The notes below the pieces were generated by a model, which did not search any database, was not told where the DNA came from, and saw only the letters and a list, made by a program, of their open reading frames with translations. A DNA stretch of 64,000 nt from Eledone cirrhosa (lineage: Eukaryota): positions 5,084,001-5,148,000 of the forward strand of contig OZ024758.1 of NCBI GenBank assembly GCA_964016885.1, written 5' to 3'. This document shows positions 5,172 to 61,820 of this stretch, piece by piece. Position 1 is the stretch's first letter; the number at the start of each line of letters is the position of its first letter. Both the position numbers and the translations under genes were made by a program.

Positions 5172-5363
5172 AATTGTTTCTACTTTTGGCACAAGGCCAG
5201 CAATTACCCTAGTGTATTACTGGTACTTTATTTTATCGACCGCGTAAGGATGAAAGGCAAAGTTAACCTCGGCGGGATTTGAACTCAGACCATAAAGGGC
5301 CGTAACTCTATGCTGCAAAGCATGGCGTCAGACCCTCTACCGATACTGTCAATCCACCGCCTT
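5172..5363 (-). mobile_element. tRNA-derived SINE family 1 (dominant SINE, Nin/Deu-like central domain)
   Basis: Head GGCGGTGGATTGGCAGTATCGGTAGAG, B-box GAGTTCAAATCCC, central GCCTTTCATCCTTACGGGGTCGATAAAATAAAGTACCAG; more than 30 copies or fragments in the window. Confidence 0.85.
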
Positions 5364-5894
5364 AGGAGTTCCCGCGTCTATAACTTTGGTGTTTACGATA
5401 ATGTTTTTATAAGCTAAAGCTTGTCTATCTGAGAATGTCTGCTATCATTAATACATAACAGTGTAAACCAATAATACACATGTATATTCTACATGGAATA
5501 TAATGAAAATATGACTTAGATGTGGGGGGAGAGGTGGAAAGACATTAAAAGGGGGAGAACATTAAGGGGAAAGAAAAAAATTAAAAAGAGGGTAGTATAT
5601 ATTAGAAAAAATGAGGAAGTTCCGTATTTTTTCTAATATATACACTCTGCCTGTGCGTAGAGTGCTTGTTTTGGTATCAACACTAGTAATTCACTGAATC
5701 CCCAAACTATATATATATACAGAGAGAGAAAAAAAGAGAGCCAGAGTTAGGTATATCCCGGCACCCCGGTGACAAGCGGCGTGTATGTTCAGAAAGCATG
5801 TCGCTATACCCACTCTGCATCTCGCCATGCATTGAGTACTCCCATGATATGTGGTGGTCACTTCGTCTTAAGTACTTTTAATTTGATAAATGAA

Positions 5895-6896: not shown

Positions 6897-7088
6897 GCGA
6901 GGGAAAAGTGGTAAAGAACCAGGTGGACCATAACGCACCAAAGTACTCAATACTAAGGGTAGTAGAGTGGGTAATAAGAGTAAGTAAGACCCCGACGGCT
7001 GAGCTCAAGCCGCTTCGACGGCTAATTCAGTACAGAATTAGCCGTCGAAGCGGCTTGAGCTCAGCCGTCGGAGTCTTACTTACTCTTA
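6897..7088 (-). mobile_element. Family A fold-back element in (TA)n (putative PLE pLTR remnant)
   Basis: About 54-bp inverted arms (6975-7028 / 7035-7088) plus a ~78-bp tail; (TA)n on both sides. Confidence 0.7.
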
Positions 7089-7384
7089 TATATATATATA
7101 TATATTGTTAAGTTAAATGTTACTGTTGGTTCACCAATTTAAGCACTCGATGTGGAGGTCACACCTGAATAAACTTAATGGTGATACTTTGTCACGTCGT
7201 TCATTTACTCTCTTTATTTTCGATATTTTTTTCTTTAATAGGACTACCTTTTATTTTTTGTATTCTTCCTTTGTGATCCTGTCTATTTTTGTACCGCTGA
7301 AGAAGGGAGTACTTTCTTTTCCTTTTCCCATATAAAGCGTGAAACTAATAAGAATTATTGTATCCCTGTTTTTTCCTTGAACTA

Positions 7385-7420
<36 letters not shown>

Positions 7421-7421
<1 letters not shown>

Positions 7422-7606
7422 CGAAGGAATTGTGGTAAGGAACCAGATGGACCATAACGCACCAGAGTACTCAATACTTAGGGTAGTAGAGTGGGTAATA
7501 GGAAAAAGTATGACCCCGACGGCAGAGCTCAAGCCGTTTCGACGGCTATTTCTAGACATAGCCGTCGAAACGGCTTGAGCTCTGCCGTCAGGGTCATACT
7601 TTTTCC

Positions 7607-7610
<4 letters not shown>
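7421..7610 (-). mobile_element. Family A fold-back element in (TA)n
   Basis: Same tail and inverted arms as 6897-7088; GTCGAAACGGCTTGAGCTCTGCCGTC. Confidence 0.7.
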
Positions 7611-7662
<52 letters not shown>

Positions 7663-8061: not shown

Positions 8062-8062
<1 letters not shown>

Positions 8063-8269
8063 CGAAGGAAATGTGGTAAGGAACCAGGTGGACCATAACG
8101 CACCAAAGTACTCAATACTTAGGGTAGTAGAGTGGGTAATAGGAACGAATAGGACCCCGACGGCTGAGCTCAAGCCGTTTCGATGGCTAATTCTGGACTA
8201 AAAATTTTTAGTCCAGAATTAGCCGTCGAAACGGCTTGAGCTCAGCCGTCGGGGTCCTACTCGTTCCTA
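8062..8269 (-). mobile_element. Family A fold-back element in (TA)n
   Basis: Near-perfect palindrome of about 130 bp centred near 8203, plus the shared tail. Confidence 0.7.
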
Positions 8270-8362
8270 TATATATATATATAATTATTGATGTTATTGT
8301 TTTCATTCACTTGATTCTCCGATGTATCTATAAATACCAATGCCATGTGTTACACCCTCCAC

Positions 8363-10871: not shown

Positions 10872-11040
10872 AACAAAGGAAATGTGGTAAGGAACCAGAT
10901 GGACCATAACACACCAGAGTACTCGATACTTAGAGTAGTAGAGTGGGGAAATAGGAAAAAGTATGACCCCGACGGCAGAGCTCAAGCTGTTTCGACGGCT
11001 ATTACGGCTAGAGCTCTGCCGCCGGGGTCATACTTTTTCC
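10872..11040 (-). mobile_element. Family A fold-back element in (TA)n
   Basis: Shared tail plus shortened inverted arms. Confidence 0.7.
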
Positions 11041-11127
11041 TATATATATATATAGAGAGATATATATATTACACATGTTGCATACACACACAGTAATATA
11101 TCTTTCAAGCAATCCTTCACTATTTAT

Positions 11128-21958: not shown

Positions 21959-22000
<42 letters not shown>

Positions 22001-22006
<6 letters not shown>

Positions 22007-22359
22007 AAAAAGAGATGAAATCGAAAATGCAACTGAAGTCTTATTTTTTTTTTAAATATATATATTTATTTAGTTCCTTTACCGGTTTCGCAGTTCTTCT
22101 GCTTTTCAAAAGGTGAGTTGAGATGGAGGGTCTGTGGTTTTTCTCACATCTCAGAAAAACCACAGACCCTCCATCTCAACTCACCTTTTGAAAAGCAGAA
22201 GAACTGCGAAACCGGTAAAGGAACCAAATAAATATATATATTTTTTAAAAAAATAAGACTTCAGTTGCATTTTCGATTTCATCTCTTTTTCTTTATACTT
22301 CCACTCGTGTAGGACACCTCGGTTATTTTTCATTTTGTAAAAAAAACCTCACTTTCTAA
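22001..22359 (+). mobile_element. Family C fold-back element in (TA)n
   Basis: About 143-bp near-perfect inverted arms (22001-22143 / 22152-22296) plus a ~60-bp tail. Confidence 0.8.
22184..22221 (+). ncRNA. Minimal type I hammerhead, U3-A8 variant (mirror copy at 22076-22113, minus strand)
   Basis: CCTT-TTGAAAA-GCAG aagaa CTGC-GAAA-CCGG-TA-AAGG. Confidence 0.7.
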
Positions 22360-22547
22360 TATATATATATATATATATTAAAGAGTTAAACAAGATTCAA
22401 TGATTACATCAAAGAATGAGTTTTACAGTTTTACTGTTGAACCTGATTCAAGTACCTCTGAAATATGTATAATAACATTTAATTGATCACAAGAACATCT
22501 ATTTTATTAATATTTGAATTTTAATATTATATATATATATATATAAT

Positions 22548-22907
22548 TGGTGTGGGATGCTTAAATCGTCCGTAAGCGGTAGGCCGTTTGAGCACTCGAT
22601 GCTCTTACAGAGCAGAGTATAATATCACATAAGAAACGGAGAATCAGTGTTGCGACGAATTGAAATTTATTAGACATATTACAATTGTTTCTCTAGCGAC
22701 CAGCTCGAGGCACGATCGATGCAATGATCGAACCTGATTCTGAAATCGCAAGATCCTCAGATACGTCTCGATTCTTCGAAGCAGAGAAGCAGAGTCGGGT
22801 TCGATCATTGCATCGGTCGTGCCTCGAGCTGGTCGCCAGAGAAACGATTGTAATATGTCTAATAAATTTCAATTCGTCGCAACACTGATTCTCCGTTTCT
22901 TGTGATA
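22548..22907 (-). mobile_element. Family D fold-back element in (TA)n
   Basis: About 120-bp inverted arms (22622-22742 / 22790-22907); tail with ATCGAGTGCTC on the minus strand. Confidence 0.8.
22672..22768 (-). ncRNA. Type I hammerhead ribozyme with extended stem II
   Basis: Minus strand AGACGTAT-CTGAGGA-TCTTGCGATT[~42 nt]GGTCGCTAGA-GAAA-CAATTG-TA-ATATGTCT-AATAAA; 8-bp stem I, GUA site. Confidence 0.75.
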
Positions 22908-22914
22908 TATATAT

Positions 22915-23384: not shown

Positions 23385-23538
23385 AATACTGGTGGGTTTG
23401 TTCAGATCTAGCTGTCGAAACGGCCGGAGCTCAGCCGTCGGGGTCCTGACTCTTTTCCTATTACCCACTCTACTACTCTTAGTATCGAGTACTCTGGTGT
23501 GTTATGGTCCACCTGGTATCTTACCACACTTTCTATGC
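23385..23538 (+). mobile_element. Family A element without the inverted arm
   Basis: GTCGAAACGGCCGGAGCTCAGCCGTCGGGGTC plus the shared tail with ATCGAGTACTC. Confidence 0.7.
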
Positions 23539-23732: not shown

Positions 23733-23938
23733 ATTGTTTCTACTTTTGGCACAAGGCCAGCAATTACCCAGTGTATTACTGGTACTTATTTTATCGATAG
23801 ATAATTCCGAGGGAAAATATTGCCCTATGTATAGAACAGAGCTGTTTAATTAAAAAGGGAACAACACGCAATATAACTACTCCATTACCAAAGGTTTCTG
23901 GATCTTAATATACGTCTGGATCGGTCATCAGACAACAT

Positions 23939-24006
23939 CTCTGTCTGATGACCGATCCAGACGTAAATTAATATTGTCTGGGATCCAGAAACCTTTGGTA
24001 ATAGAG
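23939..24006 (+). ncRNA. Type I hammerhead ribozyme (family G) within fold-back element 23797-24035
   Basis: CTCTGT-CTGATGA-cc GATCCAGAC..GTCTGGGATC ca-GAAA-CC ttt GG-TA-ATAGAG; canonical core, GUA site. Confidence 0.75.
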
Positions 24007-24047
24007 TAGATATATTTTGTGTTGTTCACTTTCTAATATATATATAA

Positions 24048-32376: not shown

Positions 32377-32415
32377 TTATTTGATAATGCATAAAAATGC
32401 TGAAACCGGTAATAG
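32377..32415 (+). ncRNA. Minimal hammerhead, U3-A8 variant
   Basis: TTAT-TTGATAA-t GCAT aaaa ATGC t-GAAA-CCGG-TA-ATAG; AATAAA downstream. Confidence 0.55.
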
Positions 32416-33629: not shown

Positions 33630-33700
33630 GTAGAATTAGTCCAGAATTAGCCGTCGAAACGGCTTGAGCTCAGCTGTCGGGGTCTTACTGGTTCCTATTA
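33630..33700 (+). mobile_element. Family A single-arm fragment
   Basis: CCAGAATTAGCCGTCGAAACGGCTTGAGCTCAGCTGTCGGGGTC. Confidence 0.65.
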
Positions 33701-34124: not shown

Positions 34125-35984
34125 CTAATAGGCATACATGCATATTCAATATATTTTTTTCCAAGTCTATACGACTCTTTCTTATTGGAACCAAGCCCAG
34201 TCTCTTAGTCTCGTATGAAGAAAAACTACATTATCGAGTCTAGAAACACAAAAGGTATAATCGATAACATTTTATCGGAGTTAGAAATTGCGGTACTTAT
34301 CTTTATTATATTATTTATATACACATCATGTCTTTCTCTTTGAATTATTCCTATTAAGGGATTGCTGTCTCTTAAACAAACCAAACGTTATCTCTGGACA
34401 TTTGACAGCAATTAAGATTTATGTGCCACACTTCGGAACTAGCGTCACATATTTCTTTTGTCTGTTTACAGATTAAATTTACTGTATGCATTAAATAGTA
34501 GTTTTCTGCACTTGAAAACTTTACATTTCCATAGCCATTACCTAAATAAGATTATTACTTTTTAATGAAATAAAAAAATATAATAATTGTTTCTACTTTA
34601 GGCACAAGGCCAGCCATTACCCAGTGCATTACTGGTACTTTATTTTATCGACCCCGTAAGGATGAAAGGCAAAGTCAACCTCGGCGGGATTTGAACTCAG
34701 ATCGTAAAGGGACGTAACTATGCTGGAGAGCATGGCATCCGACCCTCTACCGATACTGCCAATCCACCGCCCTCTAAAAAAATATAAGTGCCATCCATTT
34801 CAAGCATAACTTTAAATTTGGAAAATGGTAAAGAATTTCTTTTGAATTTGTTCTGAAAACTTTGGTTTTCAATACGTTGAACATCTCTTCACATTTTAAT
34901 CATAACTTTAAATTTAGAAAATGGTAAAGAATCTGTAGCTTTTGAATTTGTTCTGAAAACTTTGGCTTTGAATACGTTGTACAGCTTCTCTTAACAATTG
35001 GACAGCATGAGTTTTATCTGTGTTCCTAACGAGTACATTACGACTGTTGTCTCTACATAGGGAGAAGTTTTCACAGGAATATAGCACTCGTACTGTATTG
35101 AAAACATGTGATTGTATTCAACAGCAGAAATATTTTATATACTAGAATATATTTCAATATGCTGATGCTTGTTGAAATAAAAAGAAAATTAGCAATTTTG
35201 TGTGCGTATATGTGTGTATGTGCATATGCATACATCTATATGTATGAATATATAAATATAAACGTGCAAACACACACACTTACAACAATACACACCCAGA
35301 CATACATTCATACAAATACACATACATTAACACACACACATACATACTCACACACACACGCACACATACATTCACACAAACATACACATACACTCACAGA
35401 CACTCGCATATAGCAAATGAAACGCCAGTCGCTGTTTTGCTATAGTTTTTTTTTACATCAACTCCTTTTTTTCCTTTTACGCAGGCAGTGTGATAGACGG
35501 AAGTCGCTCAAATCTTTATATAGATTTATCACAATGACAATACCTTGCCAAAAAAGATCATATCTGTACTGCCTTTTTCGGAGTTGATGAAAATATGGCA
35601 AGTTTCATCTACTTATATATGGCTATCGACATTTTCTGTTACATGTTGACGGGTAACTATTTCACTCTCGTGGTTGTTCAACGAATTGTTTTGTTTCTTT
35701 TATTTGTAAAATAATTATCATCATCAGGCGACTTCAGCCGAAAGGGACTCAACAATTGATCTCCACGTGGGTCTGTCGTTCATTGCCGTTGCCAAGTTCC
35801 GGATTTCAACACCAGAATCTCTGGAGATGACATCGGGGTAGGAGAGCTTGCGCCCCCTGTTATTAGTGACTGCTTGTGGTTTCCAAAGCACTAATGGACG
35901 GACGGACGGAAACACTCACACACACATACACACACTCACACACATACACACACACACATACACACACACACATACACACACATA

Positions 35985-37474: not shown

Positions 37475-40400
37475 TTGGCAGTATCAGTAGAGCATCAGAT
37501 ACCATACTTTGAAGCATAGTTCAAATCCTGCCAAGGTTAATTTTGCCTTTCATCTTTACAGGTTCGATAAAAGTACCAGTAATGTACTAGGGTAATTGCT
37601 GGTCTTGTGTCAAAAGTAGAAACAATTATTATTATTGGCAGTATCGTTAGAGCGTCGGACGTTATGTTTCGCGACAGAGTTATGGCCCTTTACGTTCTGA
37701 GTTCAAATCCTGCCGAAGCTAACTTTGCCTTTCATCCTTGCAGGGGTAATAAAATAAAGTTCCAGTAATGCACTAGGGTCGATTTAATTTACTTTTCCCT
37801 CCACTTCAAATTGCTGGCCTTTTGACTAAAGTAGGAACAGTTATTAGTAAAATAATAAACCAATAAACACCCGCTCTGAGTTTAATAATTAGTTTATGGG
37901 TGTCATCTAAGTAATTCTAGGAAATTGCGATAGATTGAGTTCATATAATTACAGGAAATTATTACTAAGAACTAGCAGAAAAACTACCCTTCGGGTGGTT
38001 TTCTGCTGGTATGTGTAGTGTGAATATTAATATTATACGCAAATAGATATGATACGTCAAATAGATATGATACGTCAAATGAAATTGTAATTGACAATAT
38101 GCACAGAAATTGAACGAAGTCTGTGTTACACTGTCTTCTGTAATCAGTGAAGTAATCCATGATACATTTTAAAAAGACGATATTATATATAAACTGCATA
38201 TATAATAAACTAAAATGTTATGAAAACGAAAAAGGAGAAAATTAGCGGCGGAAATATAAACCTTATATAACGATGCAAATATATGAATGTTTATATAAGC
38301 GATGTGATAAGTGTTATAATATAACGGACACTAACCGGAAGTATTGACATTTGAAAATTTTAAAGAAGTGAATTTTAAAATAAGCAGTACTTTATATATA
38401 AGAATATTTATGTTTAATCAAAAACCACGAAATTTAGTAGATAAATTATATAATATTCATTCATTCATTCATTGGATTGGCAGTATCTGTAGAGGGTCGG
38501 ACACCATGCTTTGACGCATGGAGTTACGGCCCTTGCCATTCTGAGTTCAAATCCCGCCGAGGTTAACTTTGCCTTTAATCCTTACGTGGTCGTTAAACTG
38601 AGGTACCAGTAATGCACTGGGTAATTGCTGGGCAACTGCCAAAAGTAGAAACAATTATTTATTCAAAGTAATCCAACATATTTTACTAACGGGATGAAAA
38701 AAAAAATAAAACGGACGTTGTCCCGCACTCCTCTCTTTATTATATTATAGATATATTATTAGGGCGGTGGATTGGCAGTATCGGTAGAGAGTCGGAAGCC
38801 ATGCTTTCCAGCATAGTTACGTCCCTTTGTGATCTGAGTTCAAATCCCGCTGAGGTTGACTTTGCCTTTCATCCTTACGGGGTGGATGAAATAAAGTACC
38901 AGTAATGCACTGGGTAATTGCTGGCCTTGTGTCTGAAGTAGAAACAATTATATTATAGATATATTATAATGGCGTAGCTTGATTCTTATATAGCCTGTAT
39001 AATAGAGAAATGTGTTCAAGAGGACAACTACATGAATCGATCAGACCAATGCTATATCTAGAGAAGTTTGTAATTTCGTTTACGAGAATTTCAACGAGTT
39101 TCTGTACAATTTTGAATTTTCCTCACACCATGAAATTCTTCCACTTCATAATGCGATGACAATTGCTTGGAATTATTTGATTCTCAGTGAATGTGTTTTC
39201 ATCACCTTTAAGTGTTAGGATATGTGTACTAGTTCAAATATTTGTATAGCTATTGTGTACTGTTTAGTTAATCTTATCCTCTATCTAATTTTCCAGTTCA
39301 TACTACTGGCACATGCTAGATCTTAAAACGCATTTATTCTTCAAATAAGCTTAATTTTTCTTTCATTGGAAAATACTGGTATGTTGTGAAGTATTTTTTA
39401 TTTAATTAGAGGTGCTGATTTTGAATTAAAAGTACTTGTCGAGATATATAATTTACAACGTAGTTCTCACAAAAATAACTTATCCTACCGTACTAGACAT
39501 GTTCTATCGTTGGTTGGCTGTCTATTAACAGCTGTTTCCATTCTTCCACATCTATTTTTTAACGTTTTCTGCAAAATGTGTATATGTGTATGCCGTGTAT
39601 ACTTATAATACTAATGCCATGCATATTAAGAATTGTTTCTACTTTTGGCACAAGGCCAGTAATTACCCAGTGTATTACTGGTACTTTATTCTATCGACCC
39701 CGTAAGGATGAAAGGCAAAGTTAACCTCGGCGGGATTTGAACTCATACCGTAAAGGGCCATAACTCTAAACTGCAAAGCATGGTGTCTGATGCTCTACCG
39801 ATACTGCCAATCCACCGTCCTTAATACTTGTTTCTACTTTTGGCACAAGGCTAGCAAATCCCCCAGTGTATTACTGGTACTTTATTTGATCGACCCCGTA
39901 AGGATGAAAGGCAAAGTTAACCTCGGCGGGAATTGAACTCAGACCATAAAGGGCCGTAACTCCCACAAAATTGCTGGCCTTGTGCCTAACGTAGAAACAA
40001 TTATTTTGTAAAATACGAATGTCTTTTATTCTCATCGATCAACATATAACTATTGTTAGCCAATATATCTATCGATTTCTTCCCATTTGTTACAGCAATT
40101 GTGTATCGTTGTCAATTTTGATACTAGATGGTCATATTTCACAAAATTAATCGTATTTTCTTTTTACTGAAACTGTTTGACAAACGAGAAAAAGAATCTC
40201 TTGTGACGTTGGTGTAAAAATTGAGGTGAAGTATAATATTGATGACATGGTACCAAACCAACCTATTTTTTGTACCATTCATTTGACACTATACTTTGGC
40301 TGTTAATGTATGGAAGACGGAAATAATATAGAGTATACGAGGGTCGATTGAAAAGATCATAGGCTGACCAAGATACTCTCATGGAATGACCAAAAGGAGG

Positions 40401-41135: not shown

Positions 41136-41839
41136 AAAAGGGAAATATATTGTACTTGTCCTCCTCGTGTGTTGTCATCGTCTTAGTGTGAGATACAGAC
41201 TAGAGAACATTAACAGAAGTAGTGTATTATCTCTATCTCAGGGATTTCCTACTTAATTAATTGGTATTCCATATGCTATGTATTCATTACACAACCAGAA
41301 AAGCTATGGTTTCTGATAGTTTATAACTGAGATCTTAATAGACTTTGTCTTGTATAGATAAATATCTAAAATGATTTATATCAGATGTTTCGCAGCCTTT
41401 CAAAATATCTCTAATCTATAAATAAAGAGAAACACGAAATAAAATGTGTTGAAATTTCAATATCATTTATCTTTATGGCTCTGAGTCATTTGTTAATCCA
41501 TAAAACGATGTTTCTTCAGACATATGCATATAACAAACAAACACATACAGAGACACACACACACACAGACACACACACAGACACAGACACAGACACAGAG
41601 AGAGAGACAGACAGAGAGAGAGAGAGGGGGGGAGTGAGAGGGCGGGAGCACGGAAAATATATTTAAAGGATCTGTTTTTCTTTTTTTCTTCTTTATCCAC
41701 CCAAGTGACATTATTGAAAAAAAATGAGAGGAACAATTTTTTTTAAAAAATGACTTTTATAATGTATATAAATTTCTCTATAACCTCTGTTTTGTATAGA
41801 ACCTCACCCCCTTTTCATATATATATATATATATATATA

Positions 41840-42262
41840 TGAAAAGGGAGTGACTTACGCATGTGCGTTTACTAACTTCTGCGTCACTCGCAAAATTGGT
41901 TACAGAGCAAAATTATCTGTTGATAACGTGATATTTCTAGTTCGATCTTTATGCTGAAAGCTTATAGTTTTAAGCAGACAGTATTATTGATTTAGATGTC
42001 ATAGAAACCCTACATTTGGATTTTACCACCAATTCCATTTGGGTCCAGGTTGGTTTTTATCATTTATTTTGTTTGACCTGTTTAGCTTGATTTGTTTTTT
42101 GACTTAGGTGGTTAACGCCTTCTTAACCACTTTTTCAGTTTGTATGGCGTTTTAACTTATTGTTTAGCTCTAGTATTTTAACTATTGAGCGCTTGCCAGC
42201 ATTTCTACGATTTTGCGTTTCGTTTCGCTTTTTCTACCAGCCGAAATACGATTCTCGCCTAA
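41840..42262 (+). mobile_element. (TA)n-flanked pLTR-like element with degenerate U3-A8 HHR (41916-41978)
   Basis: TCTG-TTGATAA...GAAA-GCTTA..TAAGC-AGA; tail GCTCTAG...ATTGAGCGCT at 42167-42193. Confidence 0.5.
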
Positions 42263-42575
42263 TTATATATAAATATATATATGTGTGTATATATGATAGT
42301 GGTTGTGGGAGAGTAGATTGAAAGAGAGAGAGAAGGAGAATGGGAGAGAGAGGTGGTGGTGTGTGTATATATATATATATATATATATGTGTATGTGTCT
42401 ATGACCAGTGTATATAGATCACACACACACACACATTTATAAGTATACATACATACACACACACATATATATATATGGGCTTCCAGTTTCATTTCACATT
42501 ATATACGTCAGTGTATATTCTAATTATTTAAAAATTACTTTTAAGTAAACATAATTTTTTTTTAATATTTAGAAG

Positions 42576-44411: not shown

Positions 44412-45144
44412 GGATGGAAGTGTATATATATGGATATGTGTAGAAAAGGAAAACAGAAATAACTAAGCAAACGGCACAGAACAATGAAGAAATATGTGTA
44501 TGTATATATTTGAGTGTGTATGAGTGAAAGAGAGAAAGAAAGTGAGAAAGAGTGGGTGTGTGAGGGAGAGAGAAAGGGTGAGAAAGAGTTGGTATATGAG
44601 AGTGAAAGAGAGAGAGATATATATATGAAAATTGTATACTGTGTCAGTATATACAATACTGATATATAAATGTTACGTACTTTTATTTTCGTAAACAGCG
44701 TTGGTGTAGTGTTTTCTGGGGTTTTTTTGCAAACAATGAAATATCAACACTAGCTCTTGTTACTGAGGAGATATTTGGAACGATGAGAGCTTTCTAGTAA
44801 ACACACTAAACGTAAAAAGTAACAAAAGGAATGGAAGAATGAGATAAGACAGAAGGGTGAAAGATATTGTAAAGGGAAGAAATCGACCAGAGAAAGAATG
44901 ACTATATAGTGTACGAGTGTCGGTTGAACTAAGATACTCTCATGGAATGACCAAATGAGGTTTAGTTTTCAACATAGTCCCAGGAAAGAAACAATTTACT
45001 TATTAATAAGAATGATTGAAATTAATCCATGCAAGATTTCACAGCTCTAGCGTCACTCCTTCATAGGCTGACCAAGATACTCTCATGGAATGACCAAATG
45101 AGGTTTAGTCTTCAACATAGTGCAAACAATGTACTTATATTAAT

Positions 45145-45950
45145 AATTGTTTCTACTTTTGGCACAAGGCCAGCAATAACTCCAGTGTATTACTGCTACT
45201 TTATTTTATCGACTCCGTAAGGATGAAAGGCAAAGTTAACCCTGGCGGGATTTGAACTCGGATCATCAACGTCTATGTTGCAAAGCATGGCATTCGACCC
45301 TCCACCGACACTGCCAATCCACCGTTTTTATATTAATAAAACTTTATTTCACGTTGCTCCGTCTACCTGGAGTTGCGACCGATAGATAGTATTAGCAATT
45401 GGAAAGACCAGCGGAAACATTTTTTCCTCGGTCGATTTGATGAAAGTCGATATATATCGAGGGAGTGTAACACGGAGTTACTGTAGGTTCACCCAGGTGA
45501 GCACTCGATGTTTAGGTTCACGTCAGTAGCGAGGTGTAGAGCTAGACAGCGTAATATAATAATTGTTTCTACGTTAGGCACAAGGCCAGCAATTACCCAG
45601 TGTATTACTGGTACTTTATTTTATCGACCCCGTAAGGATGAAAGGTAAAATTAACCTTGGCGGGATTTGAACTCAGAATGTCAAGGGCACTAACTCCATA
45701 CGTCAAAGCATGGCGTCCGACTCTCTACCAATACTGCCAATCCACCGACCTGAGTATATAATATAATAATTGTTTCTACTTTAGGCACAAGGCCAGCAAT
45801 TATCCAGTTCATTACTGGTACTTTATTTTATCGACCCCGTAAGGATGAAAGGCAAAGTGAACCTCGGCGGGATTTGAACTCAGATCGTAAAGGGACGTAA
45901 CTATGCTGGAAAGCATGGCGTCCGACCCTCTACCGATACTGCCAATCCCG
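45145..45950 (-). mobile_element. Three SINE family 1 copies plus a tail-only PLE-like remnant (45455-45553)
   Basis: SINE consensus on the minus strand; the remnant shares GTTACTGT.GGTTCACC...AGCACTCGATG with 7120-7165. Confidence 0.75.
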
Positions 45951-46007
45951 AGTATATAATATAATAATACAAGGACGAATGGTTACTTCTTCATTATGTT
46001 TATTGGT

Positions 46008-60000: not shown

Positions 60001-60160
60001 AAACGAAGGAAGTGTGGTAAGGAACCAGGTGGATCATAACGCACCAGAGTACTCGATACTTTGGGTTCAGCCAGACTACTGCTGTGCTAACAATACTGCG
60101 TGAGTTCAAAACTAGATGTCGAAACGGCCGGAGCTCAGCCGTCGGGGTCCTCACTCTTTT

Positions 60161-60163
<3 letters not shown>
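60001..60163. mobile_element. Family A element with oppositely oriented halves
   Basis: Tail on the minus strand joined to a + strand arm GTCGAAACGGCCGGAGCTCAGCCGTC; followed by (TA)n. Confidence 0.65.
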
Positions 60164-60204
<41 letters not shown>

Positions 60205-60207
<3 letters not shown>

Positions 60208-60537
60208 GATATTAAATAAATGGAAACTATATTTATAAAACCATATCTATTTCATTATATATATTTCAGGGATATCATATTAACAATATGTTATGCCTTC
60301 CTCAGACAAAATACAATATAGACAGTTTTATAAATAAATAGATTTGACATACCGTTCAACATAACATATTGTTAATATGATATCCCTGAAATATATATAA
60401 TGAAATAGATATGGTTTTATAAATATAGTTTCCATTTATTTAATATCGTAAATATACTCCAAATACTTGTTGAGTGCTTTTATATCAGTTATAAATATTT
60501 ACTAGTTGTAACCCAACAATTTAAATATAACTTTCCA
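60205..60537 (+). mobile_element. Fold-back element in (TA)n with GTTGAGTGCT tail
   Basis: About 91-bp perfect inverted arms (60205-60295 / 60360-60450). Confidence 0.7.
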
Positions 60538-60926: not shown

Positions 60927-61399
60927 GTTCCACAACAGTTAGTTCACCATACCGAGAACAAATGTTTCACCTTATTCTCAGCTCGGTCTAGAGACCGAAA
61001 CTCGTCCCATGGACTGCGTGCTCTACTATTACGGATATTACCCTCCAGATATGTAATATCTATCAGTGTCGGCTGAAATGTTGATAGGCTGATCAAGATA
61101 CTCTCATGGAATGACCAAATGAAGTTTATTTTTAAACATACGAGAGTGGACTGAAATTTTCACATGCTGATTATGAAGGAGTGATGCTAGTGCTGTGAAA
61201 TCTTGCATGCATTAATTTCAACTTTTCTTATTAACTTCATTCTTCCGTTCCAGGGACTATGTTGAAAAATAAACAACATTTAGTCATTCCATGAGAGTAT
61301 CTTGGTCAGTCTAATATTATTTACATGTAGCAAACATGTAGATTTCATTTCATTTGTCAACCCCAAAAAAGTCATTCGAAAATATAAATGACGAATTCC

Positions 61400-61820
61400 A
61401 TAATGGTTTCTGATGTAGACACAAGGTCAACAATTTGGGGAGAAAAGAAAGTCGAGTACATCGACCCCAATACGTTGCTGGTACTTTATTTTATCGACCC
61501 CGGAAGGATGAAAAGCAAAGCTAACCTCAGTGGGATTGGAACTGAGAATTTAAGGGGCCATAGCTCCATGCCACGAAGCGTGTTGTCCGACGCTCTACCG
61601 ATTCTGTCAATCCACCTTTTAATAACCAATTACATAATAATTGCTTCTACTTTTGGCACAAGGCCATCAATTACCCAGTACATTACTGGTACTTTATTTT
61701 ATCGACCTCGTAAGGATGAAAGGCGAAGTTAACCTCGGCGGGATTTGAACTCAGACCGCAAGGGGCCGTAACTCTTTGCTGCAAAGCATAACGTCCGACC
61801 CTCTACCGATACTGCCAAAG
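61400..61820 (-). mobile_element. Two SINE family 1 copies
   Basis: Consensus match on the minus strand. Confidence 0.8.

Follow-up and report, generated by a model that had tools for sequence, protein, structure and literature searches.

Minimal hammerhead ribozymes (min-HHRs) with a U3-A8 core have been described in the Cercyon Penelope-like elements (PLEs) of Schistosoma mansoni, where about 1,300 hits were counted, and PLEs have also been found to carry hammerheads on opposite strands in pairs 100-700 bp apart, the copies being mostly single and truncated (Cervera and de la Pena 2014, PMC4209133). In the same work, a min-HHR showed low in vitro activity as a dimer, and a model with re-ligated circles was put forward; cleavage by hammerhead dimers has been reviewed (PMC6765202), and retrozymes have been linked to pLTRs (preprint 10.64898/2026.07.22.740005). 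A natural covariation from C3-G8 to U3-A8 is cited as active in vitro (Perreault et al. 2011, PMC3088659), in passages that do not deal with PLE dimers. As for integration, it is standard for PLEs that an inverted, 5'-truncated copy adjoins the main one and that just one of the ends has a tail, and an ORF1 set off by a frameshift is mentioned in the legend of Fig. 1 of the same paper (Craig et al. 2021, PMC8557442). The Anolis Poseidon element PAc has been shown in vitro to have both target strands cut and extended, its hammerhead needing protein and being dispensable for insertion (Frangieh et al. 2024, PMC11167929).

We analyzed a stretch of 64,000 nt from the genome of Eledone cirrhosa (contig OZ024758.1, forward-strand positions 5,084,001 to 5,148,000; hereafter, the window), in which a preliminary description had placed a U3-A8 hammerhead on both strands of a hairpin of about 143 bp. 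In our reading, to which we give a probability of about 0.8, 22000-22359 arose when a young PLE inserted into a (TA)n tract and left two truncated copies, and its U3-A8 motif was inherited from the source element (family A), which likely cuts RNA weakly and as a dimer only, while the window copy is likely inert.

The U3-A8 core and the mirror arrangement are already published, and family A is a fresh example of a known system. Like Cercyon and other metazoan PLE min-HHRs (PMC4209133), it has a type I motif in the pLTR with a short helix I, a palindromic helix III and the U3-A8 pair, which it also shares with the hammerheads of Perreault et al. (PMC3088659). Unlike the motifs described in PMC4209133, however, family A has a 4-bp stem II with no extra base after A9, a 4-nt CCGG insert in helix III and a GUA triplet that permits a U3-A17 pair; it is also homogeneous and about 10 times more numerous, and U3-A8 is the norm of its whole clade. 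In terms of protein, the element resembles the Neptune/Nematis PLEs of PMC8557442 (RT, CxxxxCxxC, GIY-YIG with CCHH cysteines, DKG motif) and agrees with the PLEs of that paper in its partial tandems, inverted 5'-truncated copy, one-ended tail, (TA)n targets and frameshifted ORF1, but its tail is 62-66 nt, compared with 30-40 there. Two internal RT start sites would bound the tail, as they do in PAc; the PAc sites lack homology to the DNA that is cut, whereas both ends here are TATA words matching (TA)n (PMC11167929). The new details are that the two arms end on different internal TATA words, that none of the 82 longer copies starts at the cut site, and that a U3-A17 trap is predicted as possible. 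Among the papers listed by our literature searches, none dealt with a U3-A17 trap or with cephalopod PLE hammerheads. While existing knowledge is little changed, the family is of value as material: being young, with intact enzymes, 82 copies longer than the unit and sister families differing at position 17, it offers a clean system for the role of PLE hammerheads and, likewise, for the question of how PLEs make inverted insertions with a one-sided tail.

A mirrored hammerhead motif between (TA)n tracts

The hairpin has arms of 145 nt each (22000-22144 and 22153-22297), 97% complementary around an 8-nt loop, and bears out what had been described on both strands (features in Table 1). The right arm extends to 22359, and both outer ends adjoin (TA)n. 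The plus strand has all parts of the motif, namely stem I (5' CCTT, 22184-87; 3' AAGG, 22218-21), the TTGAAAA core giving U3 and A8 (22188-94), a 4-bp stem II (22195-22207), GAAA (22208-11), CCGG (22212-15) and the GUA site with U16.1-A17 (22216-17); they are mirrored on the minus strand, where the core starts at 22109. The motif has the type I residues U4 G5 A6, A9, G12 A13 A14, A15.1-U16.1 and H17 together with G10.1-C11.1, a palindromic helix III and stems I and II of 4 bp each, stem I being marginal. The cut is predicted between 22217 and 22218 on the plus strand, and the short end of the left arm and the long end of the right arm are TATA words lying 76 and 142 nt past the cut site, respectively. 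When both strands of the window were scanned with positions 3 and 8 left free, the looser setting hit the two hairpin motifs only, and a second setting added one AT-rich match at 60305. In Rfam, no hammerhead model matched among the 150 of 159 rows listed.

Table 1. Features of the hammerhead hairpin and of related sites in the window
Feature	Position	Strand	Basis
(TA)n target tract, left	21964..22003	.	sequence
Inverted 5'-truncated PLE 3'-end copy, short end	22000..22151	-	96% to L078 inverted arm
Mirror U3-A8 minimal hammerhead	22076..22113	-	motif scans
Head-to-head junction of two truncated copies (hairpin loop)	22145..22152	.	
5'-truncated main PLE 3'-end copy (pLTR), long end	22153..22359	+	97% to L078 3' end; family alignment
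Type I minimal hammerhead: UUGAAAA, palindromic ACCGGU helix III region, GUA triplet	22184..22221	+	
62-nt tail, one arm only	22298..22359	+	arm comparison; tail concept as in PMC8557442, PMC11167929
(TA)n target tract, right	22360..22378	.	sequence
Family B (sister PLE) U3-A8 motif; UUGAUAA core, U.U closing stem II, same CCGG	32377..32415	+	
Core-like words, candidate motif with unconvincing stems	41920..41966	+	in repeat ~41850-42295

A PLE as the source of the motif

In the genome (3.0 Gb), the 30-mer that spans core to triplet has 11,539 exact occurrences, often as minus/plus pairs, and its reversed control has none; the motif is therefore not a product of chance. Thirty loci proved alike on both sides of the motif, with a (TA)n end at one of two places, and in locus L001 a GIY-YIG piece was noticed 1.0 kb upstream. 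A search with this piece gave 150 scored matches out of 10,487 candidates, and among the 17 stretches fetched around the longest frames, 16 held a stop-free frame of at least 775 aa. This ORF2 was hit by Pfam GIY-YIG (E=3e-6, above the cut-off) and by RVT_1 (28.7 bits, E=1e-6, just below the cut-off of 29.6), and its translation has a C-X4-C-X2-C linker before the endonuclease. RT followed by C-terminal GIY-YIG is the layout of an EN+ PLE, with 819 relatives; with the CX2-5CxxC type of linker and the (TA)n targets, the source element, a C-terminal EN+ PLE, has the anatomy described for the Neptune/Nematis type (PMC8557442). The minimal hammerhead, called PLE-type from its letters alone, is thereby tied to an RT-GIY-YIG element.

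Four loci (L072, L073, L075 and L078) contain a 4.7-kb unit in the order hammerhead, tail, 400-aa ORF1, TTTTTTA heptamer, 775-aa RT-CxxC-GIY-YIG, 3' UTR of about 1.05 kb and hammerhead, so that the sense-strand hammerhead of the pLTR follows the stop codon at a distance of about 1.05 kb and precedes the start of ORF1 by 172 nt. Partial tandems, inverted arms and a one-ended tail, as known from PLEs, are seen in the same loci. Among the 16 intact copies of ORF2, the mean difference is 0.5%. A non-LTR retrozyme was also considered and rejected; such elements are tandem non-coding monomers of a few hundred bases, and the unit here is a coding element of 4.7 kb.

A side observation concerns the two reading frames: ORF2 overlaps the 400-aa ORF1 in the -1 frame at the TTTTTTA heptamer (L072:2315-5754, L073, L075, L078 and L081), and a predicted stem-loop follows the heptamer in all five. 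The overlap likely represents a programmed -1 frameshift.

Insertion ends and the second copy of the motif

In the loci sampled, we found 40 inverted pairs, in which the two arms were long and short (17 pairs), long and long (1) or short and short (0), or one arm ran through into ORF1 (17), the remaining 5 being of other kinds. Among the 18 pairs with two fixed ends, 17 were thus long and short (binomial p=7e-5), and the spacing over all 40 ranged from 55 to 1,512 nt. Both insertion ends are TATA words of the element itself, and their match to the (TA)n target suggests priming by pairing. In a scheme built on these insertion ends, the enzyme would cut both strands of the (TA)n tract, and each of the two DNA ends would prime reverse transcription within the RNA at a UAUA word of its own, both words lying downstream of the hammerhead. 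At the window locus, both cDNAs would have stopped early (after about 150 and 210 nt) and then joined head to head, which would yield a hairpin with the 62-nt tail on one side.

The presence of the motif on both strands, pointed out in the preliminary description, is a by-product of integration, namely the known inverted, 5'-truncated PLE copy. In predicted folds, furthermore, a single RNA through the hairpin reaches -237 kcal/mol, G5 pairs to the other arm at P>0.999 and hammerhead stem II has a probability of about 1e-18; with the motif buried in a 145-bp duplex, the arms would be barred from forming a dimer in cis, and the window copy is in all likelihood inert.

The 3-8 pair within and among families

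When the CCGG-TA tail was fixed and positions 3, 7 and 8 were free, the genome gave 20,477 matches (control, 181); by eye, 98 of the first 100 listed were U3-A8, which corresponds to about 20,000 overall. With a slightly wider gap allowed, the single variants C3-A8 and U3-G8 numbered 151 (control, 12) and 135 (control, 15), and C3-G8 with the CCGG-UA tail numbered 14 (control, 8), a few of these 14 being older relatives (L148, L150, L151, L152 and L155), too few to call families. Single variants are hence not as common as the double variant, which answers the genome-wide count proposed in the preliminary description but says little on selection, since such counts reflect only how copies derived from a few source elements have decayed. 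Indeed, all 129 copies selected through flank anchors have U3 and A8, and most flanking bases were equally invariant. We also considered an excess of the U3.G8 wobble as a possible evolutionary intermediate: among the first 100 matches listed, judged by eye, U3-G8 and C3-A8 stood at about 27 to 5 in family C (contigs 1-4) and at about 21 to 56, the reverse, in family A.

The comparison of elements is more informative. When 97 PLE loci from other samples were scanned without constraint on positions 3 and 8, there were 45 sense hits (37 C-G, 5 U-A, 1 A-U, 1 G-C and 1 A-G), not all independent, since some motifs were hit more than once, as repeats or in another register; the pair was Watson-Crick in 44 of the 45, and the lone A-G was an off-register overlap of a C-G hit. 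This agrees with the proposal that the change from C-G to U-A is compensatory. Of the seven antisense hits, 3 were C-G, two of which are sense motifs in inverted copy; 1 was U-A, and 3 were unpaired. On a 38-row tree with one locus per distinct motif and rows unnamed, U-A needs six changes, at least five of them forced by starred branches; from the scan and this tree, the U3-A8 swap is recurrent in PLEs at the level of sequence. The labels cluster weakly on the tree (43 of 500 shuffles were as low), which fits repeated swaps and also mis-called motifs. As side observations, A3-U8 and G3-C8 cores were each seen as single hits in PLE motifs of metagenome contigs (L300:1968 and L303:116), rarer than U3-A8, and hammerhead PLEs also turned up in contigs filed as metagenome-assembled bacterial genomes (L333-L349), which are probably host DNA binned in error.

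Within E. cirrhosa, families A, B and D are all U3-A8 and form one starred clade (100/98) with ORF2 identity of about 57%, on a tree of 18 rows from which L402, having no RT segment, was dropped. Between families A and B, the 3' UTRs can be aligned at the hammerhead only (best match E=2e-4, next E=1.3), and the catalytic core bases have all been kept in families A, B, C and D while the UTRs diverged. Selection on the 3-8 pair in source elements, as read from the sequences, is therefore supported by this comparison of families and not by the number of copies; to that extent, the selection for activity suggested before is sustained.

Sister families and the sites at 32381 and 41920

Two further sites of the window, at 32381 and 41920, had been offered as signs of such selection, and they fared differently. 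The former is a real U3-A8 motif of sister family B, whose loci contain ORF2 pieces 50-63% identical to those of family A. The latter belongs to a repeat (41804-42295 in the window) that has at least 160 copies and forms partial tandems of about 600 nt (L158 and L164), and lies about 375 nt from the fixed end of the repeat. Of 10 loci, 9 retain its core words and one has G8, but stem I does not form in register and no more than 5 pairs, two of them G.U, are present in stem II; the site is thus unconfirmed as a hammerhead and gives no evidence of selection. It may be a degenerate hammerhead relative, and its repeat is perhaps a non-autonomous PLE derivative.

Family D (L400-L405) is another young PLE with stop-free ORF2 copies, about 57% identical to the family A ORF2, and its motif has the same core as family A with other stems, C17, a 5-bp stem II and a 2-bp stem I. 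C17 in family D and U17 in older copies of family C account for 2,974 matches, mostly of family D. A C3-G8 family is present in the genome as well (1,071 matches; C-G in 32 of 36 rows). No ORF2 homology was detected in 17 stretches of family C (6 kb each), 3 C3-G8 stretches, 30 loci of family E or 10 loci of the 41920 repeat. We also noticed that the C3-G8 family, which has a long stem II and a CC-TTT-GG helix III, ends in CACTTTCTAA-(TA)n words as family A does, and that a fold-back copy of it lies in the window at 23849-24037 (motif copy at about 23940-24005); no ORF could be linked to it.

Does the motif cut?

Two copies of the motif are predicted to cofold at -20.3 kcal/mol through a 6-bp intermolecular helix III (P=0.999), with a value of -8.3 kcal/mol for the ACCGGU duplex, and the dimer, invoked in the preliminary description too, is hence a plausible active form in these models. 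Two hammerheads in multi-unit transcripts would pair via the ACCGGU palindrome and process the RNA, either releasing it from read-through transcripts or cutting and re-joining it into circles. U3 would pair with A8 in the active fold, and the alternative pairing of U3 with A17 could damp the cleavage; the predicted probability of this pairing is 0.56 for the monomer and 0.46 for the dimer. On balance, useful cleavage by the dimer of the source element is somewhat more likely than not.

Among the 82 copies longer than the unit, not one begins (5' end) less than about 10 nt from the cut site: 59 reach farther upstream, and 23 break off at scattered downstream positions. The seven 5' ends at -475 are not true ends, as a subfamily differs there from the reference, and the eight near -1,020 mark where the fetched DNA runs out. 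Cut linear RNA is therefore not visible as a template, and the ends fit uncut templates or re-ligated circles. Stem I is short, too, at 4 bp in family A and a mere 2 bp in each of B, C and D. In the lizard PLE, similarly, hammerhead mutants had no effect on insertion in vitro, and no RNA-seq reads started or ended at the cut site (PMC11167929).

With the same PLE origin, these ends would also suit a hammerhead that no longer cuts usefully, U3 being held by A17 over the cut site and the motif being kept as a damped switch or as a site of protein binding or folding; we consider this unlikely, if worth serious weighing. The minimum-energy fold includes U3-A17 for monomer and dimer alike, and a comparable C3-G17 trap slows minimal hammerheads at least 300-fold, G3-C8 being more active with G17 than with C17 (PMC3884650). 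The five U3-A8 motifs from other samples carry U17 or C17 and none A17, and Naiad PLEs spread without canonical hammerheads (PMC8557442). Zero of five is, however, not significant, A17 being uncommon anyway; re-ligated circles would likewise hide the cut site; and the retention of the core bases in the four diverged families speaks for a working ribozyme. The U-A pair is also weak, as forbidding U3-A17 costs 1.2 kcal/mol in the dimer, where the constrained fold also opens stem I, and A17 is not fixed in the clade: older family C copies have U17, and the C17 of family D means that A17 is not required there. A more speculative and doubtful combination is that U3-A8 with A17 forms a natural off-switch, in which U3 shuts the ribozyme in RNA to be copied until the protein of the element or a partner copy opens it, together with insertion by two-end priming on two UAUA words, one per arm. 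If that were true, family D (U3-A8, C17) would be a natural control.

As to the hairpin itself, a functional two-strand ribozyme cassette with both copies selected at the locus is highly improbable. Both copies are indeed intact and their motifs identical, but identity is expected from youth, as the arms differ at few places overall. Inverted pairs occur at all spacings, moreover, the through-hairpin RNA leaves stem II virtually unformed in the prediction, and no ORF or upstream unit remains in the window copy. Still less credible is a microRNA precursor or a MITE with terminal inverted repeats in which the likeness to a hammerhead arose by chance in AT-rich DNA. The long, near-perfect hairpin in TA would suit it, and Rfam microRNA models do match there; the scores are, however, far below gathering (62 bits of 142 for the best match, 57 of 88 for another), and the hairpin does not qualify as a microRNA. 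The inner ends vary freely and the outer ends fall on two fixed sites, as in 5'-truncated retrocopies, and such an origin is refuted by the identity of the hairpin sequence with the 3' UTR of an RT-GIY-YIG element. If transcribed, the hairpin could yield small interfering RNAs.

Other repeats in the window

A second long hairpin (22618-22913), with 121-nt arms of 93%, lies 260 nt from the hammerhead hairpin and is unrelated to it in sequence. An abundant repeat inserted in (TA)n, with fold-back ends and a long and a short arm, was noticed at 6898-7089, 7421-7611, 8062-8270 and 10873-11043, and the same type recurs at 23397-23537, 33634-33700 and 60003-60165; it is without a canonical hammerhead core. 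A dispersed SINE-like repeat of 190-350 nt is also present in many copies, at 5173-5364, 34579-34773, 38473-38971, 39623-39963, 45137-45968, 61396-61818 and others.
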